DNA of 64,000 bases from a virus. A model generated the notes under the pieces. That model searched no databases. It was not told the origin of the DNA and saw nothing but the letters and a program-made list of their open reading frames with translations. Position 1 is the first letter of the stretch. Every line of letters begins with the position of its first letter. Positions 22,531 through 47,632 of this stretch are shown piece after piece. The stretch is from IMG/VR virus record IMGVR_UViG_3300045256_000135, positions 119,245-183,244 of that record; one strand, 5' to 3'. Position numbers and translations under genes: made by a program.

Positions 22531-22574
22531 GCTATATAGTTAGCTGTAGCATTCTGACTGTTCTAAGTCAATTT

Positions 22575-22621
22575 TCATCGAGCTCCTTGATTTGAGGCGA
22601 AACATCTTTATGATGAACGTT
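22575..22621 (+). promoter_or_regulatory. Repeated early promoter, copy 1
   Basis: TTCATCGAGCTCC-TTGATT(22587)-16 nt-TATGAT(22609); ATG at 22622. Confidence 0.7.
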
Positions 22622-23242
22622 ATGGAGGCCACGATGAAAAAGATCGCAGTACTAGTTGGCCTGCTTAGCGTTTCTGCCTGTACGGCGGACGTGTTTAGCA
22701 GCCCGTGTTCAGAGACCACTTGCACGCCGTCGGAAGAGATTCCGCCCGATGCGAAACTGATCGACGGTTCGCCAGTCCCTCAAGACTACGTTCCGAATTT
22801 CCGTTCAGTGAACGGGTGCAAGGTATGGCACGACTATCGCTATCTAGCGCCGCAAGGTTCTGGAGCGTCTGTCAAGCTGGATTGGGTTCTGCCCCAAAGT
22901 CAACGCTGCGTAATCATCATGTCGGCCACTCTGGTGAAGTTCGTTGGAGCTACCGCTACTAACCAGGTACTTCTCGGAGGTGGTGATCTGGATCCGCAAC
23001 AGTTCCCGATTAAGTTCTTCGAGTATCAAACGGACGATGTTGGCAACCCATTTCAGTGGGTCAGCTTCACGGGTGGGTACCCTGGGGTGTTTGGGTTCGT
23101 CAATCCAAACAACAAGGCAGTTTCTGGTGCAGTGATGGTCTGCATGGGAGATCAGTGGAGCTGGGATGGCCCATGCTACTGCAACCCCGAGCCGTCTGGC
23201 AAGATCACTCACGCTGCCTGCAATCCGGTCGTTGCGAAGTAA
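22622..23242 (+). CDS. Lipoprotein
   Basis: MKKIAVLVGLLSVSA-C signal peptide with lipobox; start 22622 or 22634 (GGAGG upstream of the latter). Confidence 0.7.
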   Translation: MEATMKKIAVLVGLLSVSACTADVFSSPCSETTCTPSEEIPPDAKLIDGSPVPQDYVPNFRSVNGCKVWHDYRYLAPQGSGASVKLDWVLPQSQRCVIIMSATLVKFVGATATNQVLLGGGDLDPQQFPIKFFEYQTDDVGNPFQWVSFTGGYPGVFGFVNPNNKAVSGAVMVCMGDQWSWDGPCYCNPEPSGKITHAACNPVVAK

Positions 23243-23257
23243 GCTGAATCGGATTTC

Positions 23258-23296
23258 GCTCCTTGATTTCACGCCAATCATTATTATGATCATTGT
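23258..23296 (+). promoter_or_regulatory. Repeated early promoter, copy 2 (leaderless)
   Basis: TTGATT(23263)-16-TATGAT(23285)-CATTGT-ATG(23297). Confidence 0.8.
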
Positions 23297-23713
23297 ATGA
23301 CCATCAGAGGATTCCATTTCTCAGACGAGTTGATTGACGCTATCTCAAAACGTTCGATCTCGATGTCGATTGGATGGGAGATAGTTAGCGAGACGAAGAA
23401 TGGATCTGTCCATTATCTCGGGAAGAGGACCCTGCGTAAATCGGTCGCGTCTGAGTTCGGGGTTTGGTATATCGACCCGACGACAAAGAAGCGTAAGTTG
23501 GTCTACGTTATGGTAAAGATTAGCGAATATGCCAATGGGGTGATGCTCCATCTCTACCATGAGATGTTGAATGCCGATCCCGCCACCGAGTGGGCGTTGG
23601 GAGAAACCAAGAGCCAGATCTCGGCTTTGATCTCTGAGTTCGGGAAGAAGATTGAGCCTCGCCAACCCGGTGAGCCTCGGAAGAACCTGGAAGGAGTTTC
23701 GTTCAAATGGTAA
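23297..23713 (+). CDS. Hypothetical early protein
   Basis: 138-aa ORF starting at the promoter-repeat ATG. Confidence 0.65.
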   Translation: MTIRGFHFSDELIDAISKRSISMSIGWEIVSETKNGSVHYLGKRTLRKSVASEFGVWYIDPTTKKRKLVYVMVKISEYANGVMLHLYHEMLNADPATEWALGETKSQISALISEFGKKIEPRQPGEPRKNLEGVSFKW

Positions 23714-24066
23714 ACCAAAGCTGCATCTCTTGCGGTGGGGATGGGAAGATTCAGAACGCAGCTGGAAACCGAGCAACGTGTCCGATGTGCCGTGGATCGG
23801 GGCTTGCTGGTGCGTTCGACGGATGGGGCGTTCGTGATGTAACCAAAACCAAAACTCGGAAGCCGAACAAGGTTGTTCGGCCAGAACGTCCGAAGGCTCC
23901 GACGACTGTTGGTGGTGAAGCACTAGCGACTCTCGTTCAGAACGCAGTGCTTTCAGCCGAAACGAAAGCAAAGCTGGTAAATAGCATCATCGATTTTGAA
24001 ATCGAAAAGGGCTCCATTACCGAGACCTTCCGCAAGAAGCTGATGAAGCAGATTCGAGGAAAATGA
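23707..24066 (+). CDS. DnaJ-type zinc-finger protein (no J domain)
   Basis: CISCGGDG...CPMCRGSG: two CxxCxGxG repeats. Confidence 0.65.
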   Translation: MVNQSCISCGGDGKIQNAAGNRATCPMCRGSGLAGAFDGWGVRDVTKTKTRKPNKVVRPERPKAPTTVGGEALATLVQNAVLSAETKAKLVNSIIDFEIEKGSITETFRKKLMKQIRGK

Positions 24067-24671
24067 CGTTCCAACCTCTCGATCTCCAAACGTACATCGC
24101 CAAGCGGCTGGATCAGGAGCTGAACTTCGATAAGAGTTCTGAGCTTGATCAGTGTCTCTACATTCGCGATAAACTCGCCCAACCACTTGGCTACCAGCAG
24201 ATCTACCAAGGTCAGAAAGAAGGCGAGTTGGCCCGCTATGGCAGATCGGAGTCTGCAACTGCCTCTGCCAGAGTCATTTCGGAACATCGATCAAAAAGCT
24301 GTACGCTACCAGTCGTTGATATCATACACGATTCTGGTCTGACTCTGACCGTTCGTCAGAACTTCTACAACTGGAAGCTGTCAGTGGTATCCCCGAAGCA
24401 TCTGTCAGAGCATCTGTCAGAGCATCTGTTTGATGGGCTCTGTCACACCACCCCACCGGTGGATCCGGAATATACGGGTAACCCGCTGAACCCAGTGTAC
24501 TTCGAGGGTTTCCCTAGTGACAAGATCTATGGGTACTTTTCGCAGGATCGATCTCGATTCTCCCTGGAGCTTTGGCAACTCGACGGGATTCAGATTGCAC
24601 TGTTTCTGATCATGCGAGAGCTTGGGCTTCGTCCGGCTCTGATCTGGTCAAGTCGTAAGAAGGAGACGTGA
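24063..24671 (+). CDS. Hypothetical protein
   Basis: 202-aa ORF coupled by ATGA. Confidence 0.65.
   Translation: MTFQPLDLQTYIAKRLDQELNFDKSSELDQCLYIRDKLAQPLGYQQIYQGQKEGELARYGRSESATASARVISEHRSKSCTLPVVDIIHDSGLTLTVRQNFYNWKLSVVSPKHLSEHLSEHLFDGLCHTTPPVDPEYTGNPLNPVYFEGFPSDKIYGYFSQDRSRFSLELWQLDGIQIALFLIMRELGLRPALIWSSRKKET
24397..24429 (+). repeat. 12-bp in-frame tandem repeat AGCATCTGTCAG x2.75
   Basis: Read directly; encodes HLSE-HLSE-HL. Confidence 0.85.
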
Positions 24672-24676
24672 AATAT

Positions 24677-24723
24677 TTCATCGTGCTCCTTGATTTCGCA
24701 ACGATCATTATTATGATCATTGT
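24677..24723 (+). promoter_or_regulatory. Repeated early promoter, copy 3 (leadered variant)
   Basis: TTGATT(24690)-16-TATGAT(24712)-CATTGT-ATA; the downstream gene has an AGGA Shine-Dalgarno instead. Confidence 0.8.
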
Positions 24724-24761
24724 ATAAGGGAAGTAGGATCCCTCAACAAAAGGAAAAGACA

Positions 24762-25013
24762 ATGACGACGGAAATGATGACTGAGGCCCAGACGACGGAG
24801 ACGACGGAGACGACGGAGACGACGGAGACGGTGGAAAAGAAGCAGCGGAAGTCTCCGACTCCGAAGAAAGTGGCTTGCGGAAAGTGCGGGACCGTTCGGA
24901 ACTCTCAGGCGATGCGCGCCTCGGTGGATCCGAACGGGGTTCGGTCGTACGAGTGCAAGAAGTGCCCAACCGAGCCGGTTGGTGCTGATGCTCAGGTGAA
25001 GGTGGCAGAATGA
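24762..25013 (+). CDS. Small zinc-ribbon protein with TTE repeats
   Basis: AGGAAAAG SD then ATG 24762; CGKC...CKKC. Confidence 0.65.
   Translation: MTTEMMTEAQTTETTETTETTETVEKKQRKSPTPKKVACGKCGTVRNSQAMRASVDPNGVRSYECKKCPTEPVGADAQVKVAE
24791..24830 (+). repeat. 9-bp tandem repeat GACGACGGA x4.4
   Basis: Read directly; encodes (TTE)4. Confidence 0.9.
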
Positions 25014-25945
25014 TGCCAGAGAAAAGGGGAACGTTCCGGGTTGATCGCGCTCTCGGCGTTTTCCTCGGAGGAGCACTCGGAGATGCACTGGGTGCTCCAT
25101 ACGAATTCAAGTCTCGCTCGCTTGATCCAGTACCACTCCATATGAACGGTGGTGGGTCTTTCAATTGGAGAGAGGGTGAGACGACGGACGATACTGAGAT
25201 GGCGATGGGGGTCGCCAAGATGTATCTGCAAACGAACGGACTGTACAGCGAGCAAGAGCTGAAAGCTAACTGGCTCGCCTGGATTGACACTCATCCAAGA
25301 GACGTTGGGGCTTGGACCCGGCACGCAATGGGTGGTCTTCGTCGCGGTCAGCATCCAAAGCAGTTGTGGCAAGCAGCTGGTAGGAAAGATGCTGGTAACG
25401 GTGGCGTGATGAGGGCTTGGGTGACGCCATTGGTTCGGAGAACGTGGAAACAAATCGAGCGCGATACGGTTCGAATCTGCGAATTGTCTCACCCCGATCC
25501 GCGTTGTGTAGCAAGCTGCATTGCAGTCCATTCAGCGATCCACGAAATGATCGCCGGGCGGAACAACTTACGAGCCATCGTAACGAAAGCAGCTATCCGA
25601 GCACGGGAATACAGCGAAGAAACTTCTGATGCAGTGGTGTCAGCTCTAGTGACTAAGCCACTGGAGTTCCACAACTCGGGGTACACGGTTGGAACTGTTC
25701 ACAGTGCATTCACTGCGCTGGTTACGACTCAGTCGTACGAAGATTGCCTCCGAGCGGTCTGCCAAGTCGGAAACGACGCTGACTCTGTCGGAGCGGTTGC
25801 TGGCGCACTAGCTGGTGCGTATTACGGCTACACTGAGATCCCCAAAGAGCTTGTATCGAAGCTTCGCGGGTCTGGTTCGTGGTATCATTTCACCGAAGTG
25901 GACTACCTTCGAACGGCGATTCGTCTTCTCTCCATTCGCAACTAA
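25010..25945 (+). CDS. ADP-ribosylglycohydrolase (DraG/ARH family)
   Basis: GGALGDALG, TTDDTEM, GNGGVMR, SHPDPR and DADSVGAVAGALAGA motifs. Confidence 0.92.
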   Translation: MMPEKRGTFRVDRALGVFLGGALGDALGAPYEFKSRSLDPVPLHMNGGGSFNWREGETTDDTEMAMGVAKMYLQTNGLYSEQELKANWLAWIDTHPRDVGAWTRHAMGGLRRGQHPKQLWQAAGRKDAGNGGVMRAWVTPLVRRTWKQIERDTVRICELSHPDPRCVASCIAVHSAIHEMIAGRNNLRAIVTKAAIRAREYSEETSDAVVSALVTKPLEFHNSGYTVGTVHSAFTALVTTQSYEDCLRAVCQVGNDADSVGAVAGALAGAYYGYTEIPKELVSKLRGSGSWYHFTEVDYLRTAIRLLSIRN

Positions 25946-25962
25946 TTCATCGAGCCCCAATT

Positions 25963-26259
25963 ATGGCAAGTTACAAACAGTTCATGGATCGCTACGCTCT
26001 TGTTCTTGAAGCTTGCGTCCGCCGACTGCAACATCTCAAAGGCAAGTTTGCAACTCGTAGGGAGCTTGCTCAATGGGTCGCAGGCGATCTGCCTACCCTG
26101 TATGCCAAGACGTTCTGCAACGGACGTGAGCGTAGTTCCGAGAAGCTCCACGTGAAGGTGTGGCGGGTCCAGCAGATGCTTTCGACTGCCGTGTTCCTCG
26201 GAGCGGTTCGTGGTAAGGGGATGCAGTCAGTCATCCGAGTGGTTCGGAAAGCTGGGTGA
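25963..26259 (+). CDS. Hypothetical basic protein
   Basis: ATG 25963 (MASYKQF...) after the ARH stop; preceded by a TTCATCGAGC remnant of the promoter repeat. Confidence 0.55.
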   Translation: MASYKQFMDRYALVLEACVRRLQHLKGKFATRRELAQWVAGDLPTLYAKTFCNGRERSSEKLHVKVWRVQQMLSTAVFLGAVRGKGMQSVIRVVRKAG

Positions 26260-26280
26260 TCTCTTAGCACAATCTTGTTC

Positions 26281-26321
26281 GAGCTCCTTGATTTCTCTAC
26301 AATCATCATTATGATCATTGT
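26281..26321 (+). promoter_or_regulatory. Repeated early promoter, copy 4 (leaderless)
   Basis: TTGATT(26288)-16-TATGAT(26310)-CATTGT-ATG(26322). Confidence 0.8.
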
Positions 26322-26518
26322 ATGGAACAATCCAAGTATATCGAATCTCTCCGGTTCGTTCGAAAAGACGATCAAAAGGTTTCACTGTAACGAATTACGG
26401 GCACTGGACCGACATTGTTTCGCCTGATGGTGAGACAGATCGGGTGAAGTGGTTCGGTCCAGAAGAGTTCGGTTACGTTGGGGTCCAGGGTAACGTCTAC
26501 AACAAGGTGGAGGTGTAA
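26322..26518 (+). pseudogene. Frameshifted small early gene
   Basis: ATG 26322 gives a 22-aa peptide MEQSKYIESLRFVRKDDQKVSL*; the -1 frame continues FTVTNYGHWTD... to TAA 26518. Confidence 0.5.
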
Positions 26519-26519
26519 C

Positions 26520-26903
26520 ATGGCTGGTCTGATTAAGGGCTCGCAGCAGACGAAGTTGACGAAAGAGGGCCTGTCGCCTTATAAGCGCCCAGTCCTTCAG
26601 AAGCTGCTGGAAACCGCGGTTCGAGACACTATCAAGCAGCTGGGAATTACCCGGGAGCAACGCGATCAGCATCGAGTGTATCGAGCGCTGATCCGAATGT
26701 CGGCTCGAATCGCTCTGTTCATGGGTTACAGTCTTTCCGAGCACTTGGTGCTCGTAACCGAGCTGTACGAGAAGTGCCGACTCGAATTCGAAGCCCAGCA
26801 AAAGTCACTTCCGGCGAGCAAGGTGACGTTCCAGAACGCTGTGTTGAGTTCCGAGCACTTGAAGGAGCTGCTCCAAGCAGAGACGAAGAAGCTGGGGAAG
26901 TGA
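26520..26903 (+). CDS. Hypothetical protein
   Basis: GGAGG SD before ATG 26520. Confidence 0.65.
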   Translation: MAGLIKGSQQTKLTKEGLSPYKRPVLQKLLETAVRDTIKQLGITREQRDQHRVYRALIRMSARIALFMGYSLSEHLVLVTELYEKCRLEFEAQQKSLPASKVTFQNAVLSSEHLKELLQAETKKLGK

Positions 26904-27304
26904 TGGTTGATTTCGACAAGTTTGCGGGTGGTTATCGAGATCAGCCAGTGGTTGTTCGCGAGCTCGACAAACCCATCCCGTGGTATCGCAGGTTTCTTAG
27001 CACTCTCGCTGCCAGGTTGCAAAGTCCCTGGTCAGCGTTTAAGGCAGTGCTACGTATGGGGCTGTGGTATAACCATAAAGGGTTGTTTGTGGCTCCGCCT
27101 ATGCCACCGATGTCTCTGTGGAGTAATCCGCGAATCTTTCGGAAGAGGCAAGCCCAGCTTAAACAAGAGCTGCAAGAGATGCGATTGTCGATCAAATCGC
27201 TTAACGCGATCAATGACGAATTCCTTCGTGGGATCTCTAGCAGTCGTGTGAAAACAGTGGAACGCATTCAGGAGCGTATTCGTGAGCAACGAAAGCGTCG
27301 TTAA
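26903..27304 (+). CDS. Hypothetical protein with C-terminal coiled coil
   Basis: TGATG coupling to the preceding gene. Confidence 0.55.
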   Translation: MVDFDKFAGGYRDQPVVVRELDKPIPWYRRFLSTLAARLQSPWSAFKAVLRMGLWYNHKGLFVAPPMPPMSLWSNPRIFRKRQAQLKQELQEMRLSIKSLNAINDEFLRGISSSRVKTVERIQERIREQRKRR

Positions 27305-28370
27305 GCATCTCCAAGAGATTGCAGAGCTTCTGTTCCTTGCAAAAGAGGATCAGCGAGGCTATGCGTACGCTAAGGCCGCGAATAGTATCAAGGCTTCTGA
27401 GAAGTTGGTCACGCCAGCAATCAAGCCAGGAGAGCTGAAGTACGTTGGACCGTCCATTGTTGCTGTAGTTCTCGAGTTTCTCGAAACCGGTACGAGTAGC
27501 ACTTTCGAGAAGCTTTCTTCGACCGTGGAACGCCCACCTGCCGATATTAGCGCTGAGCTACAGAAGATCCAAGGGGTTGGTCCGGTGAAGGCCATGACCT
27601 TGTGGAAAGCAGGATTCAAAACCATTGCCGACGTGGAAGCCGCGTTAGCATCCGGAGCTCTAAAAGACGAGCGTCTCAAGAAGTCTGTGGAGTACGCTAA
27701 AAACCAATCTGAGCGGATTCCGTTCCACAAGGCATATAGTTTAGCTGCACCGATCCTCGACAAGGTAAAGTCGATCTGTACCAGCGATGGTCGTAGTCTT
27801 ATCCAGGAAGCAGAGTACGCTGGCTCCCTCCGTCGAAGAAAAGAGACGGTAAAGGACATCGACATCCTATGCTCGATCGCTACAGATTGGGACCGAAATC
27901 TAGTTCGGGAGCACATCAAGACGTTCTGGCCGAACGATATCATTGCTGATGGTGTGAGTCGAACTCGGCTTCGGATTACCGATCGCCAGTGTGATATCAT
28001 CTACACGCAGCCGAACACGTGGGGAGCTGCACTTCAGTATCTGACTGGCAGTGCTGATTTCAACGTTCGACTACGTGCCTATGCAAAGACGCTGCATTTC
28101 AAGGTAAGCGAGTACCAGCTTCTCCGCTACCCCGGAACGCCACATGAAGAGAAGCACGATGTCCCATCTGAGCAAGCGTTGTTTGAGAAGCTTGGGATCT
28201 GGTATGTCGAGCCCCATGATCGCGAAGGAGTTCGAAACCTCGAGCTAGCTATCGCTCTGAAGGAGATGCGTCAAGTGCCGGATATGACGTTCGACAAGGC
28301 AATCTGGCTTCGAACGAATCTAGGTATATGTACTCCAGCGGAGCTGAAAGCTCACCAGGAATCGACATGA
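27282..28370 (+). CDS. polX: DNA polymerase family X (no PHP domain)
   Basis: AYAKAA 8-kDa domain, HhH GVGP motif, AGSLRRRKETVKDIDIL, LQYLTGSADFN. Confidence 0.92.
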   Translation: MSNESVVKHLQEIAELLFLAKEDQRGYAYAKAANSIKASEKLVTPAIKPGELKYVGPSIVAVVLEFLETGTSSTFEKLSSTVERPPADISAELQKIQGVGPVKAMTLWKAGFKTIADVEAALASGALKDERLKKSVEYAKNQSERIPFHKAYSLAAPILDKVKSICTSDGRSLIQEAEYAGSLRRRKETVKDIDILCSIATDWDRNLVREHIKTFWPNDIIADGVSRTRLRITDRQCDIIYTQPNTWGAALQYLTGSADFNVRLRAYAKTLHFKVSEYQLLRYPGTPHEEKHDVPSEQALFEKLGIWYVEPHDREGVRNLELAIALKEMRQVPDMTFDKAIWLRTNLGICTPAELKAHQEST

Positions 28371-28552
28371 CTAAGTCAGAGAAGACGTGTCTCAATTGCT
28401 TGCATCGGTGCATGGATATGGATATGGATCCGTATTGCTCTGCTGTTAACCAGCCTTGGGGGTTGGTTTTGCGTCAGGGCAAACCAGAAGACTGCGGATC
28501 AGAGTCCAAACTATGGGAGAAGGATACACGTGGGAACAGTCCTGCTGGTTGA
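28367..28552 (+). CDS. Small Cys-rich protein
   Basis: CLNCLHRC...YC...C; ATGA coupled. Confidence 0.55.
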   Translation: MTKSEKTCLNCLHRCMDMDMDPYCSAVNQPWGLVLRQGKPEDCGSESKLWEKDTRGNSPAG

Positions 28553-29495
28553 CGGTAATCCGCTCGTATGGCGGAGCGTGGACATCTACAAGAATCTCAG
28601 AACGAAGACCGGAAAAGCTACAGGAGCTATCTACGGAGCGTTCGAGATTCTCTTTAGAGCAATCGACCACGTAAAGCCAGACTCGATCGTAGTGACGTGG
28701 GATGTTGGTAAGTCTCGGTGGCGAAGGGCCTTGTCTCCAGACTATAAAGCCTCTAGAGAGGCGAGGAAGCCGAACGACGGTGGGTTGCCGTTTGAAGAGA
28801 TCATCCCTCAGTTCAGTGACATTCAGAGGCTGCTTATGCTCGCCGGGATTCCGCAGTTTGGGATCCAAGGTGTTGAAGCCGACGATCTCATTGGTTTGCT
28901 AGCATCCGGCTTAGCAAAAAGTCAATCACATGACATTGTGATCTTGTCGTCTGATGGAGATCTCAATCAGCTGCTCTCAGAGAAAGTCCGTCAGTATGAC
29001 TCAGTTGGGAAACGGTGGGTTGACCTTGAGAAGGTCAAAGAGGTCTACAATGGTCTCACTCCAGCTCAGCTAATTGAGCTGAAAGCAATTACAGGTGATG
29101 GTGGTGATGACATTAAGGGTGTGAAGGGTATCGGCCCTTCCGGAGCTCACAAGCTGTTGACGACTTTTGGCTCTTTGGATGCGTGCTTGGATGATGCGAA
29201 CCAAGCTCAGATCTCAAGTCTTGGGAAACGCCTTGCTGCATTTACCGAGGCTAGGGATACGGTCAAGCTTGCTCGGAAGCTTGTGACCATCACCACCGTT
29301 GATAACTACAAAGAGTTCTTGTCTGCTGAAGAGATTGCTGTTTTCGTAACACTCCTCAGAACGAAAGTTGAGCCAAATCGTTTCAGCTTTTCGCAGGTTG
29401 CAGATTCCCTTGAGCTCGAGCGGGTGAATCGACGGGCGGGCTTGCTTTTTGTCCCTAGTCCGGAATTAGAGCAGGTTTCGCAATGGTTTATGTAG
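28530..29495 (+). CDS. 5'-3' exonuclease / flap endonuclease (PolI N-terminal family)
   Basis: LLVDGN, WRRALSPDYKASR, GVEADDLIG, SSDGDLNQ, GDGGDDIKGVKGIGP. Confidence 0.92.
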   Translation: MGTVLLVDGNPLVWRSVDIYKNLRTKTGKATGAIYGAFEILFRAIDHVKPDSIVVTWDVGKSRWRRALSPDYKASREARKPNDGGLPFEEIIPQFSDIQRLLMLAGIPQFGIQGVEADDLIGLLASGLAKSQSHDIVILSSDGDLNQLLSEKVRQYDSVGKRWVDLEKVKEVYNGLTPAQLIELKAITGDGGDDIKGVKGIGPSGAHKLLTTFGSLDACLDDANQAQISSLGKRLAAFTEARDTVKLARKLVTITTVDNYKEFLSAEEIAVFVTLLRTKVEPNRFSFSQVADSLELERVNRRAGLLFVPSPELEQVSQWFM

Positions 29496-29845
29496 AGCTG
29501 CAAGAGACTGAAGAGTACGGGGAGATCAGGTTTGACATCACAAAGAATGTGACCGCCTACGTTAGCCCCGTCTTGCTCCAGCCTCCGGTTGCGGGTCTGA
29601 CCTGTGTTCTGAATACTCAGCTTCCGGTCTACTCAGCCTTCGATTGGCTGGTGTTTGAGGTAGTGAAGTTCGCGAAAGTACAGCTCGACCTTCGTGGGTT
29701 TCTTGGCCACGACGTGAACGTCTTGTTAGAGTACAGCAGAATCACGGATCCACAAAAGCAGATTCGCAGTGTGAACAGGCAGTGGTTTAACCAAGCAGTT
29801 CAAGCTCGAGCCGCACTTCTCAGACAGAAGGTGAAGTACCCGTGA
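29483..29845 (+). CDS. Hypothetical protein
   Basis: 120-aa ORF overlapping both neighbours in the operon. Confidence 0.55.
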   Translation: MVYVELQETEEYGEIRFDITKNVTAYVSPVLLQPPVAGLTCVLNTQLPVYSAFDWLVFEVVKFAKVQLDLRGFLGHDVNVLLEYSRITDPQKQIRSVNRQWFNQAVQARAALLRQKVKYP

Positions 29846-30120
29846 AGACCTGGTGGGTGTACATCATCCAAAACCAGAAGGGAGTGCTCTACACGGGGAT
29901 CACCACCGAGTGTAGTACTAGGATTAGTGCGCATAACAATGGATGTGGAGCAAAGTTTACCCGTGGTAAAGGGCCGTGGCACCTGGTTGCCTCACTAGAG
30001 GTACCAACTAGATCAGAAGCCTCCAAAATTGAGGCAGCTATCAAAAAGCTTCCCAAAGACAAGAAGGTTGTTGAATTACTTCTCAGAAGAGACTTGATTT
30101 CGCGAAATACATCATTATGA
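29842..30120 (+). CDS. GIY-YIG nuclease (YhbQ/YazA, SLX1-like)
   Basis: WVYII...LYTGIT...RISAHNNG.GAKFTR...ASKIEAAIK. Confidence 0.9.
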   Translation: MKTWWVYIIQNQKGVLYTGITTECSTRISAHNNGCGAKFTRGKGPWHLVASLEVPTRSEASKIEAAIKKLPKDKKVVELLLRRDLISRNTSL

Positions 30121-30127
30121 TTGTTGT
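30093..30127 (+). promoter_or_regulatory. Repeated early promoter, copy 5 (leaderless)
   Basis: TTGATT(30094)-16-TATGAT(30116)-TGTTGT-ATG(30128); overlaps the GIY-YIG 3' end. Confidence 0.75.
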
Positions 30128-30406
30128 ATGAGCACTCTCCAAGCGTTTCGATTGAACCCGGCAATTCTCGAGTTCGAGTTTCAAGAAACCGACACCACGT
30201 TTCTGGGGGAGAAGCGCCAGTTACTGTACACGCTCATCGGATCAAATGACGCGATGACTCGAGGGCATGCGGTAGAGATTTACATCGACGATGGCTCTAT
30301 CCACGTTATGGACATCAAGCAAGGGCGAGAGGTTGAGTCGAGGCCTTGGAGTCTTGACACTCTCGGAAACCTGCTTGAGAAGTATAAAGCCAAGGATCAG
30401 CCCTGA
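30128..30406 (+). CDS. Hypothetical early protein
   Basis: 92-aa ORF starting at the repeat ATG. Confidence 0.65.
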   Translation: MSTLQAFRLNPAILEFEFQETDTTFLGEKRQLLYTLIGSNDAMTRGHAVEIYIDDGSIHVMDIKQGREVESRPWSLDTLGNLLEKYKAKDQP

Positions 30407-30419
30407 AGTCTCGAGATCT

Positions 30420-30466
30420 TTCATCGAGCTCCTTGATTTCTCGTACATCATCATTATGATCATTGT
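30420..30466 (+). promoter_or_regulatory. Repeated early promoter, copy 6 (leaderless)
   Basis: TTCATCGAGCTCC-TTGATT(30433)-16-TATGAT(30455)-CATTGT-ATG(30467). Confidence 0.8.
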
Positions 30467-30670
30467 ATGAGCTACTCCAAATTCAATGAAGAGTTTGCCA
30501 ACGCCAAGACGCGTAAAGCGAAACAGACACTGCTGGAGTCAGTTTCGAAGGGTGATTTCGGAGCCCAGGTCAAATCCTCGATCTTTGGCCTGGGGGATTT
30601 TGATCCTAACCACGATCTGACTCGAGAGCGCCTGGCCGAGATCAAGAACGCTCAATTCGGAGATCACTGA
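30467..30670 (+). CDS. Hypothetical early protein
   Basis: 67-aa ORF starting at the repeat ATG. Confidence 0.65.
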   Translation: MSYSKFNEEFANAKTRKAKQTLLESVSKGDFGAQVKSSIFGLGDFDPNHDLTRERLAEIKNAQFGDH

Positions 30671-30825
30671 TGCTACAGATTGCAATTCTGATCGTAGCCA
30701 TTTGCATTCTGATCGTTCTGATCAGAATCGCTTACCTGTTGGACGTACTCAACGACAACATTTGCAAAAGCTCAGTCATCATTTCTCGGCAGATCGACGC
30801 ACTCGACATAAAGGTGAAGAAATGA
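30670..30825 (+). CDS. Small membrane protein (51 aa, not in ORF track)
   Basis: MLQIAILIVAICILIVLIRIAYLLDVL...; coupled by TGATG upstream and ATGA downstream. Confidence 0.6.
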   Translation: MLQIAILIVAICILIVLIRIAYLLDVLNDNICKSSVIISRQIDALDIKVKK

Positions 30826-32099
30826 AGGTTTTTGAAGTTCTCGAGAAGCTCGAAGCAACCTCCAGCCGGCTCGAGAAGGAGAAGATCCTGCGAGAAGAGG
30901 TGGACAACTCCGAGTTGAAGCTACTGTTCGTCCAGTCGATGGATCCATACGTTACGTATGGAGTTGCAAAGTTCAAGATGCCACCGGCGTCTCAAGAAGA
31001 GGCATCAGGTGTTTTGACAGGATTCGTTGATGTTCTGAATCAGCTTTGTCTTCGGCAAATCACTGGGAATAAAGCGAAAGACAAACTCGAATCTATCTTT
31101 TCGGAAATGACCGAACTCCAGCAGAAGTGGCTCAATCGTGTTCTGCTGAAGAATCTCAAAATCGGGTGTACGTCGACCACGATCAACAAAGTCTGGCCGA
31201 AGCTCATCCCGACGTTCGAAGTGCAGCTGGCTGAAGAGGTTGCAACGACGCAAACGAAGGACGCGTTCACAATCAACGACGAAGTTCGCTATCCTTGCTG
31301 GGTTGATCCAAAGCTGGATGGGCTTCGAATGATCGCGATCAAGCGAAACGGGGAGGTTACTCTGCTGAGTAGAAATGGCCAGGTGTTCGAGAACTTTCCC
31401 TCCATCGCCGAGGCTCTCAAGATCGCAGAGTACGACAACGTGGTGCTCGATGGCGAAGTGATGGGAGCTGACTGGAACGAGAGTCAGTCGATCGCGTTCT
31501 CGAAGTCTTCAAAGAAGAGCGATTCGAACATGATCTATAACGTGTTCGACTGCCTGCCACTGACCGATTGGGTAACGCAGATTTCGAGTCTGAGCTACCG
31601 TGACCGTTTGACGCAGCTGAAGCACATCGTCGGACTGACGAATGACAAGATTCGGCTGGTGGTTGGGACTGAAGTGATGGACGAGGCTCATCTGCTTCTC
31701 TATTACCAGGATCTGTTGAATCAGGGTTTCGAAGGGGTTATGCTCAAGGACCTCTCCAGCCCTTATCAGTTCAAGCGGACGAAGGCTGTTCGAAAGCTGA
31801 AGCCAATCGCTACTCTCGAGGGTGTGGTTTCTGGCTGGTTCTTGGGGCACAAGAACAGCAAGTGGGAAGGGAAGTTCGGTGGATTTCTGGTTCGGTTGCC
31901 AAACGGAGTTGAAACTCGGGTGGGTGGTGGCTTCTCGGATGAGCAAAGGAAGCAGTTCATGGAAGACCCTAACTCGCACATCGACAAGGTTGTGGAGTGC
32001 CAGTGCCAGCCTCCGCTGACTGCAGATGGGAAGATGCGATTCCCGGTATTCCTTCGGTTCCGTAACGAAGCCGACGTAGATCCCAAGGTGCTCGGATGA
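30822..32099 (+). CDS. lig: ATP-dependent DNA ligase
   Basis: DPKLDGLR (motif I), VLDGEV, YNVFD, EGVMLK, KLKP, RFPVFLRFR; likely start ATG 30822. Confidence 0.93.
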   Translation: MKVFEVLEKLEATSSRLEKEKILREEVDNSELKLLFVQSMDPYVTYGVAKFKMPPASQEEASGVLTGFVDVLNQLCLRQITGNKAKDKLESIFSEMTELQQKWLNRVLLKNLKIGCTSTTINKVWPKLIPTFEVQLAEEVATTQTKDAFTINDEVRYPCWVDPKLDGLRMIAIKRNGEVTLLSRNGQVFENFPSIAEALKIAEYDNVVLDGEVMGADWNESQSIAFSKSSKKSDSNMIYNVFDCLPLTDWVTQISSLSYRDRLTQLKHIVGLTNDKIRLVVGTEVMDEAHLLLYYQDLLNQGFEGVMLKDLSSPYQFKRTKAVRKLKPIATLEGVVSGWFLGHKNSKWEGKFGGFLVRLPNGVETRVGGGFSDEQRKQFMEDPNSHIDKVVECQCQPPLTADGKMRFPVFLRFRNEADVDPKVLG

Positions 32100-32463: not shown

Positions 32464-32471
32464 GTGAGATC

Positions 32472-33596: not shown

Positions 33597-33611
33597 CAGG
33601 TTGAACGTAGG

Positions 33612-33623
33612 TATAATAGTACG
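33612..33623 (+). promoter_or_regulatory. -10 box of a probable leaderless promoter for the SNF2 gene
   Basis: TATAAT(33612)-6 nt-ATG(33624); no SD and no good -35. Confidence 0.5.
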
Positions 33624-35444
33624 ATGCCTATTGATCTCGATGTGACACCGGATGGCTCAAAACTGATTGTCTGGTTGGTTGATCCACGTTTTACCAACCA
33701 GATGAACCTTTTGCTATCATCTCTGCTGACGAGTCAGTTAGATCGCGTTCACGATCAGTGGTTGGTAACTTGGAGCGACTTCAAGCAACTCCGCGTAAAG
33801 ATGGACCAACTGGGTCTCACAGAAGGACGTTCAGCCACACAAGCTGCAGTCTCTTGGATCGCGGATCAGGAAGCTAGAGACGTTGAGGTGGAGTCGATCA
33901 AAGAGGGGAAACAAAACCATCTTGTCCATCTCCCAAAGACGGTTGTAACTAAACCGTACGAAGATCAGATCACCGGGATTCGATTTCTCACGGCTATACC
34001 TTTCGCTGTTCTGGCTGATGAGATGGGTATCGGCAAGACCCTTCAGATCCTAAGCGCCTTCGCTGTGCTCAAGTCGAAAGGCGAAGCGAAGCACATGCTG
34101 GTGATCGCACCCAACAGTGTCAAAACTGGATGGGTCAAAGAGGTTAACAAGCACACCACGTTGACAGTATCCGCCCTCGGAAACGGCTCAGTACAGTTGG
34201 AGCAGGACTTCGACAAGTACAAAAAGAAGCGAACTGATGTGTTGGTTGTGCATTACGATGCACTTTCCAGTACGAAGACGAAGCACAACCGGCGACGTCT
34301 ACCGTACTCTCATCTGGTTGAAGAGGCTCTAAAGCTTCCCTGGGACTTCATCGTGTTTGATGAAGCACATCAAGTCAAGTCTCTAGAAACGAAGCGAGGT
34401 CAAGCTTCATTGCACCTTGCAGCAAACGCTAAGACTGACAAGAAGACTAGAGCCAGATTGTGCTTAGCCACCGGCACGCCAGTTTCAGAAAGCCCGATGG
34501 ATGCATGGTCAGTGCTAAACTTCATCGACAAGAGCCAATTACCAAAGACTTACAACAAGTTCGAGAACTATTTCACCATCAAAGTTCGAAAAGAGATGGG
34601 TGGTCGCGTATGGGGTGAGACAACAGGCTACAAAAACCTGGGCGAACTGAAACAGCTACTTCAACGCTCGATGATCCGTCGACTGAAAGTGGACATCAAA
34701 GGGATGCCAGAGAAAGTATCGCAGTTTCGCTATCTTCAGATGACTGGAGCTCAACAGCAACTGTACAACGACATCAAGCGTGGTCTGTACGATACAATCG
34801 AGCAGGACCCAAACAACAAGCTTTCGATCGCCTTTGCTATGACAAAGTGCATCAGATTGAGGCAGGCTCTGAATCACCCCTCGCTTGTTGAAAAAGAGGG
34901 AGAGAGTGCTAAGTATCAGATTGTGGATGAGATTCTGGACGAGGTGCTCACTGACCCAATGTCCAAAGTTGTACTCTGGACAGAGTTTAGAGCAGCTGCA
35001 GACTTGCTGGTTGAACGGTACGAGAAGAAGTATGGCTGCATCAAGCTAGTCGGTGGTACTTCACAAGAGCAGCTGAGCTACTGGTCCAAGAATTTCGACC
35101 ATATGCCTCAGCGCGTTGCAGTTGGTATCCCGCTGTTTGGTGGCACTGGTGTTGACTTCTTGAGTCGGTGCCGAACCGCGATCTACCTAGAGCCACCCTA
35201 CAGTCTGATTACTTTCAGGCAGTCTTGTGATCGCATCCATCGCAGAGTTGGCACAGGTAACGACCCGATCGAAGTGATCAAGCGATCTCCAGCCAACCTC
35301 ATCTTCTTGCAAGTTGAGAAGTCCATCGATGAGCTGTGCTACAAACTGCTAGCACGAAAAGGCGACATGGTCGATCTACTGCTTACCAGCGACGAGAAAC
35401 TTGAGCAGATGGGCAAGACAGAGCTCCTAGAGTACCTCAAGTAA
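33624..35444 (+). CDS. SNF2-family helicase/ATPase
   Basis: LADEMGIGKT, VFDEAH, ATGTP, MIRRLK, LRQALNHP, GTGVDF, DRIHR. Confidence 0.92.
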   Translation: MPIDLDVTPDGSKLIVWLVDPRFTNQMNLLLSSLLTSQLDRVHDQWLVTWSDFKQLRVKMDQLGLTEGRSATQAAVSWIADQEARDVEVESIKEGKQNHLVHLPKTVVTKPYEDQITGIRFLTAIPFAVLADEMGIGKTLQILSAFAVLKSKGEAKHMLVIAPNSVKTGWVKEVNKHTTLTVSALGNGSVQLEQDFDKYKKKRTDVLVVHYDALSSTKTKHNRRRLPYSHLVEEALKLPWDFIVFDEAHQVKSLETKRGQASLHLAANAKTDKKTRARLCLATGTPVSESPMDAWSVLNFIDKSQLPKTYNKFENYFTIKVRKEMGGRVWGETTGYKNLGELKQLLQRSMIRRLKVDIKGMPEKVSQFRYLQMTGAQQQLYNDIKRGLYDTIEQDPNNKLSIAFAMTKCIRLRQALNHPSLVEKEGESAKYQIVDEILDEVLTDPMSKVVLWTEFRAAADLLVERYEKKYGCIKLVGGTSQEQLSYWSKNFDHMPQRVAVGIPLFGGTGVDFLSRCRTAIYLEPPYSLITFRQSCDRIHRRVGTGNDPIEVIKRSPANLIFLQVEKSIDELCYKLLARKGDMVDLLLTSDEKLEQMGKTELLEYLK

Positions 35445-35917
35445 CCCTGCTCTACCATGTCTTTCCCACATCTAGCTATCTAAGCTAATGCACATGACGA
35501 GTCTAATGATACGTCAAAGAGCCAAGAATCTCCGGAGTTTAAACGAGCAGCTTGATGACGAGGAGCATTGTACGTTGGATGCACGCTTGGCTTGAACTAC
35601 TCATGCACAGTATTTACCGTACACTGTCTCTGACTGCTGGTCGACAGCTGCACAAGGGTGTATATACACCCTTCATCTTTTATTCTCTAAACTAGTCTTT
35701 TTCTTCTAGTCTATGATTCTTAGCTAAGAGACTAAGAGACTAAGAGCTAGATGATCATTTGGACCTGCAAAAACCAAAACCGGAGATTGTCGATCCGTTG
35801 GCCGAAAAGAGTTCGGTGGTTCTCTACAGTAGACTAAACTGAGAACAGTAGGTAAATCAACTCTGTCGATCCGAGTAGTCAATTCTTGGAGTCGACAACA
35901 TAGCCACGTAGGGAACG
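35445..35917. other. Long non-coding region, candidate replication origin
   Basis: Perfect 20-bp palindrome at 35654-35673, T-rich tract, and CTAAGAG(A) x3 at 35724-35746; upstream of initiator/loader/helicase genes. Confidence 0.5.
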
Positions 35918-37162: not shown

Positions 37163-37955
37163 CGTTGAAGATTGGTGCGCAAGCTGTCCGTTGTGCCAAG
37201 GCAGCATGTTCCTCAGTGCAACTTCGTCAGAGAGATGCCCATGCTGGCGATTGTTTATGTCAACCAACAGGTTGATAGCCTGCGGGTTTCCAAGAGCGTA
37301 CACATTGTTCAACTGGGACAGTATGTGGCCGACGAAACTTCAGACTTCCAAAGAGTGGGAGGCACAGTTTCCAGATTCGTACGCTTGGGAGTTTGACCAA
37401 GAGACAACTGACGAAGAGGCAATTCGTTACTGGGTAGACAATCCTGATCAGGTGCAAACTCGAGGACTTTCGTTGCTTCTGTTCAGTGGCAAAGGGGTGG
37501 GAAAGACTTCGCTCGCTACTACTCTAGCAAAAGAGTATACGAAAAGAGTGGGGGTTGACGATTCCGGTGCCATCGGAAGCTTCACTCCGCGATTCATTGT
37601 AACGGATACTCTGTATGAGCTGATTCTGACGAGATCGTGGCACGGACTCGAGCTGTATCAGAAAGCAATCTCCTCGGATCTGCTGGTTTTGGATGATCTT
37701 CGACTGTCATTCAAAGGGATGGGTGCCAACGACTATTTTGAGCGTTTGCATTCGTGTCTTCAGCATAGGGCTGCAAACAACTTGCCAACGATCATCACTG
37801 TGAACAAGATTGATGATCGCAAAGATTTCCAGGCCAACTGCGTAACAGATTTCTTGGGTGTGCAAGCAGCTGAGCTACCAGACAAGTTTGGTAAGTACAG
37901 ATTTGTTAGGTTGAGCAATACTGCCCTCCGACCAGAGCCTGAGTGGGGAATCTGA
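37143..37955 (+). CDS. DnaC/IstB-like helicase loader ATPase
   Basis: N-terminal CPLC...CPC; SGKGVGKTS Walker A; LLVLDDL Walker B; LPTIITVN. Confidence 0.85.
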   Translation: MQRRLDNVEDWCASCPLCQGSMFLSATSSERCPCWRLFMSTNRLIACGFPRAYTLFNWDSMWPTKLQTSKEWEAQFPDSYAWEFDQETTDEEAIRYWVDNPDQVQTRGLSLLLFSGKGVGKTSLATTLAKEYTKRVGVDDSGAIGSFTPRFIVTDTLYELILTRSWHGLELYQKAISSDLLVLDDLRLSFKGMGANDYFERLHSCLQHRAANNLPTIITVNKIDDRKDFQANCVTDFLGVQAAELPDKFGKYRFVRLSNTALRPEPEWGI

Positions 37956-39331
37956 TGGACGTTAAGCCGTTTGCCGATCCAGATCTGGAAGAGACATTCT
38001 TGTCAGCTGTAGCTCAAGGACACGAGTCTGCCAAATCCGTGTTGAGCATCGTTAAACCAGAGCACTTTGACACTCCGACATATCGTTGGTTTCTTGAGGT
38101 TATCAAGCAGCGTTCTGATTCAGTGCCGACGAAAGGCATGCTGATTCAGATCGTTGACGATACGTTTAAGGTGAAAGATGAGCAGGACAAGTACAAGCTG
38201 TCCCTGTCTCGTTTGTATTCGCTGAATATCGAGCAGGGTGCATCTGATGCCGTTTTGACTTACAAGAGGTTCATTTCGCTTCAGCAGACAAGTACAGCTA
38301 TCAAGCGGTTTTACGACGATTACGGCAGAACAAGGAAGCTAGAGTTCGCACTTCGAGATCTCGAACTTGGCTTGGCGGACGCGAAGGAGGCTCTGTCCAC
38401 TAAGCAGCTTCAGGTAGTAGACTTCGCCAAGACATTCAAAGAGCGAGAGGCCGTACGAAAGTACAAGCGAGACAATCCGGATCTGTTCCCTAGGATGCGA
38501 TTCGGTATACCAAAGCTTGATGCACAGTTGAAGTGTGAATTCGGAACAGTAACGCAATTCCTTGCACCAATGAAGCGGTACAAGTCAGTGATCCTAGCCA
38601 CAGGTGCATTCGCTTCTGTATTGCAAGGGTTTAACACTGTTCTAGTCGTTGTTGAGAACTCCATCGAACTGACCATGAATCGGCTGGATTCGATGTTCAC
38701 TTCGATCAATTACGATCGAGTTGTCAACTACTTGAAAGACTCACAAGAGCGAAAGCACGTTGACCAGCTGTTTGAGAAGATCGACAAGTGGCCACAGCGA
38801 CTGAAGGTGATCAAAGGCAATCCGAACGAGCTTACCATCCCCGACTTGGATCGAGAACTACGGAGACTCGAACGAGAAGAGGGGTTCACCGCTGAAGTCA
38901 AAATCATCGATTACTTGAACCTGATGAAGGCGTCTACAGCAGTACAACGTGACAATGACGAGCAAACCGAAATCTGTTGGGATATGCAGAAGTCTGCGAA
39001 GGATCCAAGCAGGCCTTCGATCTTCATCACCGCCTCTCAGGCGAACATGGCTGGCGCAGAGATCGATAAAGACGGAAAGCCGGTGAAGGTTCGTCAGCAC
39101 CACCAAGGAAGATCGATTGGTATTGCTCAGGCTGTAGACAATTCAATCGGTATCGACGTTGAGTATACAAAGGGACAAGATGGTTCAGCTGCTCCGCCGA
39201 ACATTATCTTGAGTCCGTTGTTCTTTAGAGACGGATCGATCATGTACCCCGAGGTTCGTCTAGTTAGCGAAATCGATCGGATGTGTATTGACCGATCGAT
39301 CAACAAGCTCTGGGAAGAAGCAGAGTGGTAA
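37955..39331 (+). CDS. dnaB: DnaB-like replicative helicase
   Basis: FGIPKLDAQL, atypical Walker A APMKRYKS, VVENS, IIDYLNLM, ITASQAN. Confidence 0.8.
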   Translation: MDVKPFADPDLEETFLSAVAQGHESAKSVLSIVKPEHFDTPTYRWFLEVIKQRSDSVPTKGMLIQIVDDTFKVKDEQDKYKLSLSRLYSLNIEQGASDAVLTYKRFISLQQTSTAIKRFYDDYGRTRKLEFALRDLELGLADAKEALSTKQLQVVDFAKTFKEREAVRKYKRDNPDLFPRMRFGIPKLDAQLKCEFGTVTQFLAPMKRYKSVILATGAFASVLQGFNTVLVVVENSIELTMNRLDSMFTSINYDRVVNYLKDSQERKHVDQLFEKIDKWPQRLKVIKGNPNELTIPDLDRELRRLEREEGFTAEVKIIDYLNLMKASTAVQRDNDEQTEICWDMQKSAKDPSRPSIFITASQANMAGAEIDKDGKPVKVRQHHQGRSIGIAQAVDNSIGIDVEYTKGQDGSAAPPNIILSPLFFRDGSIMYPEVRLVSEIDRMCIDRSINKLWEEAEW

Positions 39332-39412
39332 ATACACTCTTTCTCATTCCACGGCTTGTGTACATTATCATCGCTAGCTCTCTTAGCTTTGTAACCTGAA
39401 CGGAGCAGAACA

Positions 39413-40126
39413 ATGACCAAAGCAGCACTCGTAGCGTACGTTCTCAAAGCAATGATGTCTTGGAGTCCGGTGTCTCAGCATACTCCAGCAGAGAAGCAGG
39501 AAGATGCTGAAGCACGGTACAAGTCAATTGCTGAGGACATCGCTGAAGTCGCAATGGATCCGATCGAATCAGTTGCACCAGTGGACCTTAGATCAGTCGA
39601 CGGAAGAGTTTTGGTTCAGTCGAGTGATGCTAAGAATGCAATCCTAGTGGCTGCAGTTGCTAGTCTTGAGACAAATTTCGCAAAGTTTGTCGATGATGGC
39701 ACGTGCAACCAACCAGGGTACAAGCCTGATGCACGAGGTTCGTGCGACGGTCGAAATGCGTGGACGATGTGGCAGTTGCACACAATGGGTGGGATCGTAA
39801 TTCGTGGTGACGAGATTGTGGGTCGTGCCTACGCCACTCCAGAAGAGCTTGCCAATCCATCGCTCTTGTGGACTGGTCCTAAGCTAGTTGCCGATCGGAA
39901 GGGAGCTGCTCGAGTGGCTCTCCACGAGATGCGTTACTCAATGCGGAGAACAAAAACTCTGTGCCTCTACGCAGGTGAGACCGATCGAGAGCATCCCGGT
40001 TCGTGTCGAGTTGTATGCTCGGGATCACCAGAAAAGTGCGTGGTGGCGATTCCGCTGGCAACTGCCAGATTGTCGAGGGCTGTGTCCTACTTGGCACAGA
40101 ATCCAGTTGAAGTGTCGGAGATTTGA
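39413..40126 (+). CDS. Putative lysozyme-like / lytic transglycosylase-like protein
   Basis: Hydrophobic N-terminus; VAAVASLETNF...TMWQL resembles the SLT ES-x-F...GLMQL motifs. Confidence 0.45.
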   Translation: MTKAALVAYVLKAMMSWSPVSQHTPAEKQEDAEARYKSIAEDIAEVAMDPIESVAPVDLRSVDGRVLVQSSDAKNAILVAAVASLETNFAKFVDDGTCNQPGYKPDARGSCDGRNAWTMWQLHTMGGIVIRGDEIVGRAYATPEELANPSLLWTGPKLVADRKGAARVALHEMRYSMRRTKTLCLYAGETDREHPGSCRVVCSGSPEKCVVAIPLATARLSRAVSYLAQNPVEVSEI

Positions 40127-40171
40127 GAAAGTCTCTGGTATATAGACGAACATACGCCCTAAGGAGGCAAT

Positions 40172-40543
40172 ATGTCTGGTAGAGATCAGTTGGTTGTTAA
40201 GGTGAATGAGAAGATCAAGAGTGACCCTGGGCTTGAGTCACTTAAGCCCCAGCACGTTGATCTTCTGTCCGAGGCCATTGTTGAGATGGTCAAGGGTGGA
40301 GATCGTGTCACTCTGCAAGGGTTCGGTTCGTTTTTCCGGCGTCCTCAGGCTGCTCGGGTAGCTCGCAACCCGAAGACTGGTGAGCCGATTCAAGTGTCTG
40401 CTCGGGTCCGATTGGATTTCCAAGCAACAGTGCCTGCTTTCGACCTGACCGACGAAGAGACGGCCAAGCTTGCAAAGGCGGCGGCGAAGGCCGCAGCTCC
40501 CGCTAAGCCAGCGCCTGCTCCCGCCAAGAAGGCCACGAAGTAA
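40172..40543 (+). CDS. HU/IHF-family DNA-binding protein with Ala/Lys/Pro-rich tail
   Basis: VTLQGFGSF...ARVARNPKTGEPIQV; strong TAAGGAGG SD. Confidence 0.92.
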   Translation: MSGRDQLVVKVNEKIKSDPGLESLKPQHVDLLSEAIVEMVKGGDRVTLQGFGSFFRRPQAARVARNPKTGEPIQVSARVRLDFQATVPAFDLTDEETAKLAKAAAKAAAPAKPAPAPAKKATK

Positions 40544-40555
40544 GACTGTTTTCCC

Positions 40556-40610
40556 CAACCCGGAGTTGACTAGGTGCCCCTACCACTGATGTCCTCCGGG
40601 TTGTTTTTTT
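40556..40610 (+). terminator. Intrinsic terminator
   Basis: CAACCCGGAG...CTCCGGGTTG stem followed by T7, right after the HU gene. Confidence 0.8.
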
Positions 40611-40619
40611 GAGATTGTA

Positions 40620-40655
40620 CTTGATTTCTTTTGTAGAGATCATTAAGATAGGTCT
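40620..40655 (+). promoter_or_regulatory. Diverged copy 7 of the repeated promoter (leaderless)
   Basis: C-TTGATT(40621)-17-TAAGAT(40644)-6 nt-ATG(40656). Confidence 0.65.
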
Positions 40656-40955
40656 ATGGAAGAAGCGAAGATCAGATGCGCCAATGTTCTGAGCCCTGAT
40701 CAGTGCGGAATCAGTACCGGGGTCTGTGAACGCTTGACCGTTGGCCACGGTAGGCTGTCGTTCCACGGGTACTGGGAGTTCCCATGCCTCGCCTGCGCAA
40801 AGCGAATTGGTGCGAACCCAAAGCTGGCTCAATACGGTGTTTGGCCAGCAAGTGAGGAAGAGGCAAAACCAGGCGATCCAGCACTTTATGATGAAGAGGA
40901 TGAGAGGTGGGCATCGTACGGAGATGAGTGCTGGACTGATTTGGAGTTAGACTGA
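40656..40955 (+). CDS. Hypothetical Cys-containing protein
   Basis: 99-aa ORF at the promoter ATG. Confidence 0.6.
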   Translation: MEEAKIRCANVLSPDQCGISTGVCERLTVGHGRLSFHGYWEFPCLACAKRIGANPKLAQYGVWPASEEEAKPGDPALYDEEDERWASYGDECWTDLELD

Positions 40956-47615: not shown

Positions 47616-47632
47616 CAGGTACAAGGACGAGC

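Follow-up and report, generated by a model that had tools for sequence, protein, structure and literature searches.

Does a promoter-like unit that recurs along the genome of an uncultured phage carry within it the start codon of the gene that follows, such that the messages it yields would begin with AUG and lack a ribosome-binding site? The question is raised by a repeated cassette of about 45 nucleotides (nt) in a stretch of 64,000 nt, called the window here, which forms the last 64 kb of the 183,244-bp record IMGVR_UViG_3300045256_000135 (coordinates are those of the window unless marked "genome"). An initial annotation of the window had described seven copies between 22575 and 40658, most with an ATG 6 nt behind a -10 hexamer, and had proposed that early genes are leaderless by design. 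We followed the cassette through the whole phage genome (G000) and through that of a distant syntenic relative (G001). The reading that we consider probable is transcription of the sigma70 type by the host, giving leaderless first genes.

Copies and layout of the cassette

The window was searched with the pattern TTGATT-TC-N6-ATCATYAT-TATGAT, allowing up to three mismatches. Six sites with zero to three mismatches were found, all on the + strand (22587, 23263, 24690, 26288, 30094, and 30433), and no match occurred in 100 dinucleotide-preserving shuffles of the window. The genome-wide profile scan that had been proposed as a check, with a profile built from the copies, gives 17 strong copies in G000 at 28 to 52 bits, all on the + strand, as are nearly all genes of this phage, and the next best match reaches 11.6 bits. 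Eleven of the 17 lie outside the window (genome 16.5 to 86 kb) and six within it. Both pattern and profile therefore uphold six of the seven copies first listed. The seventh, at 40621, is a diverged look-alike of 3.0 bits (40620 to 40955, + strand), in which CTTGATTTC is followed by a 17-nt spacer, TAAGAT at 40644 to 40649, AGGTCT, and ATG 40656, opening an open reading frame (ORF) of 99 amino acids. The geometry of the cassette is kept there, yet judged by its score against the 28 to 52 bits of the others it is no clear member of the family.

Alignment of the window copies returns the consensus TTGATT-N16-TATGAT-CATTGT-ATG given in the initial annotation. An upstream segment (TTCATCGAGCTC in the first copy) precedes the -35 hexamer TTGATT, a 16-nt spacer, (ATCATYAT) with the -10 hexamer TATGAT, and NNTTGT; the family unit in full is CTTGATTT, a 16-nt spacer (16 or 17 nt in G001), (ATCATYAT)TATGAT, and NNTTGT. 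TTGATT, with a C before it, is invariant in 16 of the 17 copies and agrees with TTGACA at four of six positions, and TATGAT is present at the 16-nt spacer in all 17 and agrees with TATAAT at five of six. An extra upstream TTC(A/G)TCGAGCTC is common to a subset of the G000 copies and is missing from G001. A conserved dyad, ATCAT-N4-ATGAT, overlaps the -10 hexamer.

Four of the window copies have an ATG 6 nt behind the -10 hexamer. The second copy (23249 to 23713, + strand, 45.8 bits) has its -35 at 23263 to 23268, its -10 at 23285 to 23290, and CATTGT before ATG 23297, which opens a 138-amino-acid ORF (23297 to 23713). As the sole database match of this ORF is the same 138-amino-acid protein, the source gene call must have used ATG 23297 too. 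The database cluster of that protein comprises two contigs, the longest of 366,137 bp, about twice the genome, which may be a concatemeric assembly. The fourth copy (26274 to 26518, + strand, 50.3 bits; -35 at 26288 to 26293, -10 at 26310 to 26315) has ATG 26322. Its reading frame extends for merely 22 codons (to 26390), past which the coding signal goes on in the -1 frame for some 45 more codons, to 26518; this switch of frame within 26322 to 26518 might stem from an indel in the assembly, from a frameshift, or from an overlap of two small genes. The fifth copy (30080 to 30406, + strand, 36.0 bits; -35 at 30094 to 30099, -10 at 30116 to 30121, then TGTTGT) has ATG 30128 and a 92-amino-acid ORF. 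The sixth (30419 to 30670, + strand; -35 at 30433 to 30438, -10 at 30455 to 30460, then CATTGT) is the best copy at 52.4 bits, and its ATG 30467 opens a 67-amino-acid ORF without any other start codon in the first 30 codons, followed at 30702 by a DNA ligase gene.

The other two window copies depart from this arrangement. In the first (22574 to 22636, + strand, 35.7 bits; -35 at 22587 to 22592, -10 at 22609 to 22614), ATG 22622 stands at 7 nt and opens an ORF that ends at 23242 and whose N-terminus looks lipoprotein-like. The third (24676 to 25013, + strand, 48.8 bits; -35 at 24690 to 24695, -10 at 24712 to 24717, then CATTGT) reads ATA at 24724, and its leader carries AGGA at 24751 to 24754, followed after 7 nt by ATG 24762 and an 83-amino-acid ORF to 25013. 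The spacings first reported (6 nt at 23297, 26322, 30128, 30467, and 40656; 7 nt at 22622) are thus as described, and the sole ATA copy is indeed the one followed by a leader with a Shine-Dalgarno (SD) sequence.

Two observations concern the neighbors of individual copies. The ORF upstream of the fifth copy (29842 to 30120) stops at the TGA inside its -10 hexamer, and TGA within TATGAT or TTGATT is the stop codon of the upstream gene at 30118 to 30120, genome 16565 to 16567, and genome 54458 to 54460; as the hexamer TGA serves as stop codon, upstream gene and next promoter overlap. The copy at genome 34013 has AGGAG in place of ATG, then a 3-codon ORF, and a degenerate cassette with an ATG follows at genome 34420. 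This copy faces an 89-amino-acid ORF at genome 34084 to 34353, one of only three minus-strand ORFs called, and since that gene lies on the minus strand, a transcript from genome 34013 would be antisense to it.

The fused ATG in two related phages

Genes were called crudely, from ORFs and codon usage. In G000, an ATG stands exactly 6 nt past TATGAT in 12 of the 17 copies. The remaining five comprise one with the ATG at 7 nt, three with an SD sequence at the predicted start, and the one with ATA and an SD-bearing leader. Nine of the 12 six-nt ATGs are the first possible start of an ORF of 59 to 215 amino acids (p = 9e-9), measured against a background in which 7.2% of + strand ATGs open an ORF of at least 48 amino acids as its first start. 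An SD core lies upstream of none of the 12, an in-frame downstream start with an SD-like core is present for only one, and three have no other start within their first 30 codons.

The spacing itself is not random. When first-start ATG ORFs of at least 50 amino acids with a TAnnnT hexamer were counted at each spacing from 0 to 15 nt in G000, 15 fell at 6 nt, of which 10 are at cassettes (including the look-alike at 40621) and five are elsewhere, and other spacings gave 0 to 5 each, except for 9 at 9 nt. Among the latter are three cassette copies re-read via an overlapping TATTAT, the degenerate copy at genome 34420, and five unexplained cases. A leaderless habit across the whole genome was considered and rejected, as merely five non-cassette first-start ORFs have the TAnnnT-6-ATG arrangement. 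At its other genes the phage appears to use SD sequences, since SD-like cores precede 61 of 192 longest-ORF starts versus a background of 10%.

The copies without an ATG are informative. Those at genome 16563, 34013, and 59597 have AGGAG or AAGGAGG straight after TGT, and the TGT-A junction is preserved in all four copies that lack the ATG. As the junction is kept even there, it suggests that the A after TGT may be the start of transcription and that the transcript would open with either AUG or an SD sequence. Downstream of the start, a purine is found at +4 in 23 of 23 copies versus 32 of 51 SD-led genes (p = 2e-4), and in G001 the 40 nt past the ATG are less structured than control 40-mers (p = 3e-5).

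G001 was found by motif scans of IMG/VR. It measures 152,626 bp at 42% GC, is estimated to be 80% complete, and is syntenic with G000; 73 of 195 ORF calls match, at 23 to 75% protein identity, most at 30 to 60%. Its 12 cassette copies read CTTGATT, a 16- or 17-nt spacer ending in ATCATTAT, TATGAT, usually GTTTGT, and ATG. The distance from -35 to -10 varies (16 or 17 nt) and that from -10 to ATG is constant, with the ATG at 6 nt in 11 of the 12. Nine of these 11 ATGs are the first start of ORFs of 48 to 256 amino acids (background 4.9%, p = 9e-11). The lone ATA copy has AGGAAG next and an ATG 14 nt on, like the window copy at 24690. The rule of either ATG or SD thus holds in two distantly related phages.

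What stands behind the cassettes differs between the two. Only one of 14 queried G000 ORFs (those at cassettes and look-alikes) matched G001, besides the gene for an SNF2-type helicase, and in the reverse query none of 11 G001 cassette ORFs matched G000. Since the two phages have unrelated ORFs behind their cassettes, the unit of cassette plus ATG is conserved and its cargo is not. All but one of the 17 G000 copies lie in two regions, at genome 15 to 63.8 kb and 141.5 to 150 kb, which together hold 90 mostly small genes; 14 of these 90 have a G001 homologue, versus 36 of 47 in the replication module.

The cassette is known from these two independent genomes only. A metagenome scan with an 11-nt gap, which fits only copies with a 17-nt spacer, returned G001 again and a second contig, which was rejected as an independent genome because it is identical to G001 over two 1.2-kb loci. 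Among searches for further relatives, 9 kb of sequence matched nothing in a megablast of phage records, a search with the ligase returned only an unrelated high-GC contig in which the motif is absent, searches with the SNF2 protein and an SNF2 alignment found G001 as the sole relative, and motif scans of viral contigs gave G001 and chance matches only. No close relative was found among them that could show indels bounded by the repeats.

Transcription and translation from the cassette

We propose that the cassette would act as a strong promoter of the sigma70 type, read by the RNA polymerase holoenzyme of the host, with transcription starting at the A next after TTGT. In most copies this is the first base of the ATG; the product there would be a leaderless mRNA whose 5' end is the AUG itself, lacking a ribosome-binding site, from which the first gene of each small operon would be made, ribosomes presumably binding directly at the 5' end. 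From the copies without an ATG, the transcript would start with, or soon reach, an SD sequence. Promoter activity, the start site, and leaderless translation are what we infer here from the DNA and its conservation; a search for RNA sequencing runs over 22400 to 31000 listed none.

The layout points to sigma70. Two blocks at -35 and -10, a spacer that varies by 1 nt, and the hexamers TTGAnn and TAnnnT are its signature, and the tests applied to the hexamers find a -35 resembling TTGACA and a TAnnnT -10 within the range of 16 to 18 nt from it. A purine preceded by T occupies the seventh position after the -10, the modal start position of sigma70 promoters. In Pfam searches of G000, no Sigma70_r2, T7-type RNA polymerase (RNAP), Rpb1, or Rpb2 domain was found, the blank for T7-type RNAP being a weak one, as its control (PF00940) matched no control genome. 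Pfam and PHROG scans of the large ORFs revealed no phage polymerase, PDB sequence searches with four giant ORFs gave no match, and orthologous large ORFs have no DxDGD motif in common. Given the sigma70 layout and the lack of any detected RNAP or sigma domain, the host holoenzyme would be the most economical reader.

An alternative that we regard as unlikely is a polymerase or sigma-like factor encoded by the phage or carried in the virion, for which the cassettes would form a middle or phage-specific class whose messages might still be leaderless. Several observations lean that way or weigh against the host holoenzyme. Both phages keep a stretch of some 20 nt between -20 and +3 nearly unchanged even though their proteins are only 30 to 60% identical, and this conservation reaches beyond the sigma70 contacts; it would fit a phage-specific factor, or a site for a regulator at the small dyad ATCAT-N4-ATGAT, as well. 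Many large ORFs (949 to 1599 amino acids) have no Pfam, PHROG, or PDB sequence match, and a very divergent polymerase could hide among them. TTGATT shares only four of six positions with TTGACA, and a scan of the region for generic promoters yields 19 sites where 12 ± 3.6 are expected. The host is also poorly constrained: in the 3 of 64 parts of the genome contigs that were scanned, RecA is 47 to 56% identical to many phyla, and no relative in culture was found, PolA being at most 33% identical to that of cultured phages. The two-block arrangement of TTGAnn and TAnnnT across a spacer of 16 or 17 nt is nonetheless that of sigma70, and the domain and motif searches offer no candidate for a polymerase of the phage's own. 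A promoter of the Bacteroidetes type (TAnnTTTG) was rejected by eye, as the invariant TATGAT fits sigma70 and SD-like cores stand at 61 of the 192 starts.

It could also be argued that the ATG is mere initially transcribed sequence of the promoter, with translation starting elsewhere or from short leaders, in which case the genes would not be leaderless; we hold this to be distinctly improbable. Some cassette ATGs do open very short frames, of 22 (26322) and 32 amino acids (genome 85815, hydrophobic) in G000 and of 7 and 36 codons in two of the 11 cases in G001. At 61053 of G001, GAGGA-N4-ATG comes after the motif ATG, and this second ATG, in a different frame, opens an ORF of about 550 amino acids; in the first window copy (22587) an alternative start, GGAGG-N5-ATG 22634, is equally good or better. 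The ATG at genome 48538 (61 amino acids) has an in-frame TTG inside the promoter spacer. ORF length alone gives a modest result in G000 (10 of 12 versus a 41% background, p = 0.004), the trend in 5' structure is not significant in that genome (p = 0.08), and the cassette ORFs, nearly all of which are without homologues, are taken as real from their length and codon usage. A preference of transcription, as well as one of translation, might likewise explain the purine at +4. All of these count against leaderless first genes. Set against them, long ORFs have the motif ATG as their first start in 9 of 12 cases in G000 and in 9 of 11 in G001, there is almost no SD-led alternative start, and an SD sequence is gained where the ATG is lost, in both.

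That the repeats serve chiefly as joints for recombination or make up a small mobile element, their likeness to promoters being incidental, is highly improbable, for in spite of their concentration in the two variable regions, and of the upstream TTC(A/G)TCGAGCTC in a subset of copies absent from G001, which hints at homogenization from copy to copy, recombination needs neither co-orientation with genes nor a fixed distance of 6 nt to a start nor near-consensus hexamers. A role in recombination is at the same time compatible with host-read promoters and leaderless first genes and does not exclude them.

Timing, regulation, and comparison with known systems

The cassettes stand at the front of short operons made up of small genes that evolve fast and have no known relatives, together with some genes of DNA metabolism. 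Among the products of these operons are an ADP-ribosylglycohydrolase, a PolX-like protein, an exonuclease, and a DNA ligase; Pfam names only one of the 22 cassette ORFs, a dual-specificity phosphatase at genome 60914. Because they precede such genes, in regions whose gene content changes from one related phage to another, the cassettes would most likely be promoters of the early class, or of the early and middle classes. The regions have the look of early or host-takeover regions, and we infer the early class from the sigma70-like sequence, the variable small-gene regions, and the fact that no RNA polymerase of the phage could be detected. The earlier proposal of an early regulon made leaderless by design stands as far as the geometry of promoter and ATG is non-random, the ATG behaves like a start codon, and the ATG-or-SD rule holds in two phages, with its timing a prediction. 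The advantage once suggested for stressed or toxin-activated cells finds nothing in its favor here, and the MazF "stress ribosome" model that underlies it could not be repeated in other laboratories, according to a 2022 review (PMC9031893).

No terminator-like hairpin was found beside the cassettes in the window between 22000 and 41500, where 15 sites were counted versus 16.8 expected. As none flanks the window copies, transcription from upstream probably runs on through the cassettes. In the resulting RNA the ATG, lacking an SD sequence, would be internal, and the first genes may need their own promoter for translation; since the ATG has no ribosome-binding site, the first gene could be translated only from transcripts of its own promoter and not from read-through. 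The dyad ATCAT-N4-ATGAT could bind a single regulator that switches the whole set off, and the ATCATYATTATGAT block of the cassette may be a candidate operator. It is conceivable, as a tentative extension of this idea, that the cassette is a portable module of several functions long kept in the phage lineage, combining promoter, regulator-binding dyad, start codon, and the TGA stops of upstream genes, and that recombination could bring further genes under its control.

The closest resemblance is to the promoter-early stem-loops (PeSLs) of T4-type phages, which are repeated strong sigma70-like early promoters with stem-loop terminators that lie in hyperplastic regions and mediate gene shuffling (Arbiol et al. 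2010, PMC2839356; Comeau et al. 2014, PMC4122927). With PeSLs the cassette shares a near-identical strong sigma70-like promoter in many copies, co-oriented with genes and repeated in variable regions of small genes (16 of 17 copies). An adjoining stem-loop terminator is absent from the copies in the window between 22000 and 41500, and here the promoter is fused to a start codon, with no leader or ribosome-binding site; moreover, the present phage is not recognizably T4-like.

In the Thermus phage phiYS40, most middle and late mRNAs are leaderless, which has been linked to raised IF2 and lowered IF3 (PMC3594737; the study of Sevostyanova et al. 2007 is cited in PMC12340547). The likeness lies in a large phage with a whole class of transcripts that lack a leader and an SD sequence. 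The class there is middle and late, with promoters reportedly without a -35 element, whereas the cassette has a clear -35 box and the look of a host-read early promoter. In Deinococcus-Thermus bacteria, TAnnnT a few base pairs upstream of an ORF drives leaderless genes, an added -35 box enhances expression, and a -10 region adjoining ORFs is common (Zhong et al. 2025, PMC12340547). That is a habit of whole host genomes with diverse sequences, in contrast to one repeated phage cassette with five other cases in the genome.

The PRM promoter of phage lambda is a sigma70 promoter that starts at the A of the AUG of cI, and in this it resembles the cassette; it differs in serving a single regulatory gene of a temperate phage, where the cassette is repeated and heads many operons. 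The PRM-cI transcript is a model leaderless mRNA (PMC9031893), for which Shean and Gottesman 1992 is among the references of PMC12340547. For phiKZ, no leaderless transcript is reported (PMC8244752), and the authors of the AR9 study state that phage transcripts are often leaderless (PMC5312081). Full-text literature searches, supplements aside, yielded no account of any phage with a conserved promoter-ATG cassette. The cassette is a variation on known phage tricks and introduces no new principle.

If the start sites are as predicted, a set of probably early operons would do without ribosome-binding sites on their first genes, by means of one compact unit of promoter plus ATG, a unit that has outlasted the genes driven by it. 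It would then represent a ready-made minimal expression signal and would supply a rule for placing the starts of genes in uncultured phages, in which programs that look for an SD sequence may go wrong. Leaderless translation would also be a routine phage strategy beyond the few cultured examples.

The SNF2-type helicase gene (PHROG 62; 33612 to 35444, + strand) had been cited as a further case of the same geometry. TATAAT at 33612 to 33617 is indeed followed after 6 nt by ATG 33624, but the gene has no cassette and no convincing -35, and the arrangement is not conserved in G001, where the gene has a TTG start with GGAG upstream.

A second repeated intergenic palindrome, ACAGCTA-N6-TAGCTGT (for example, GCTATATAGTTAGCTGT), occurs at 22531 to 22547 and at genome 21.9, 51.7, 85.7, 91.7, 117.0, and 177.5 kb. 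It is found on both strands, three times 50 to 70 nt upstream of a cassette, and might serve as an operator, form a weak hairpin, or represent another class of promoter. Five tRNA genes lie among the cassettes at genome 46 to 55.5 kb (Asn-GTT, Arg-TCT, Ile-TAT, Leu-TAA, and Ser-TGA); several of them read codons ending in A or T, which hints at a host with more G+C than the phage. A phage tmRNA is encoded at 51298 to 51659 on the + strand (ARAGORN tag ANDNVELSEAAEAA; Rfam RF00023 at 79 bits versus a gathering score of 47). At 47612 to 51085 are genes for a radical-SAM protein and a glutamine amidotransferase-QueC fusion, which presumably may belong to a pathway of 7-deazaguanine DNA modification.

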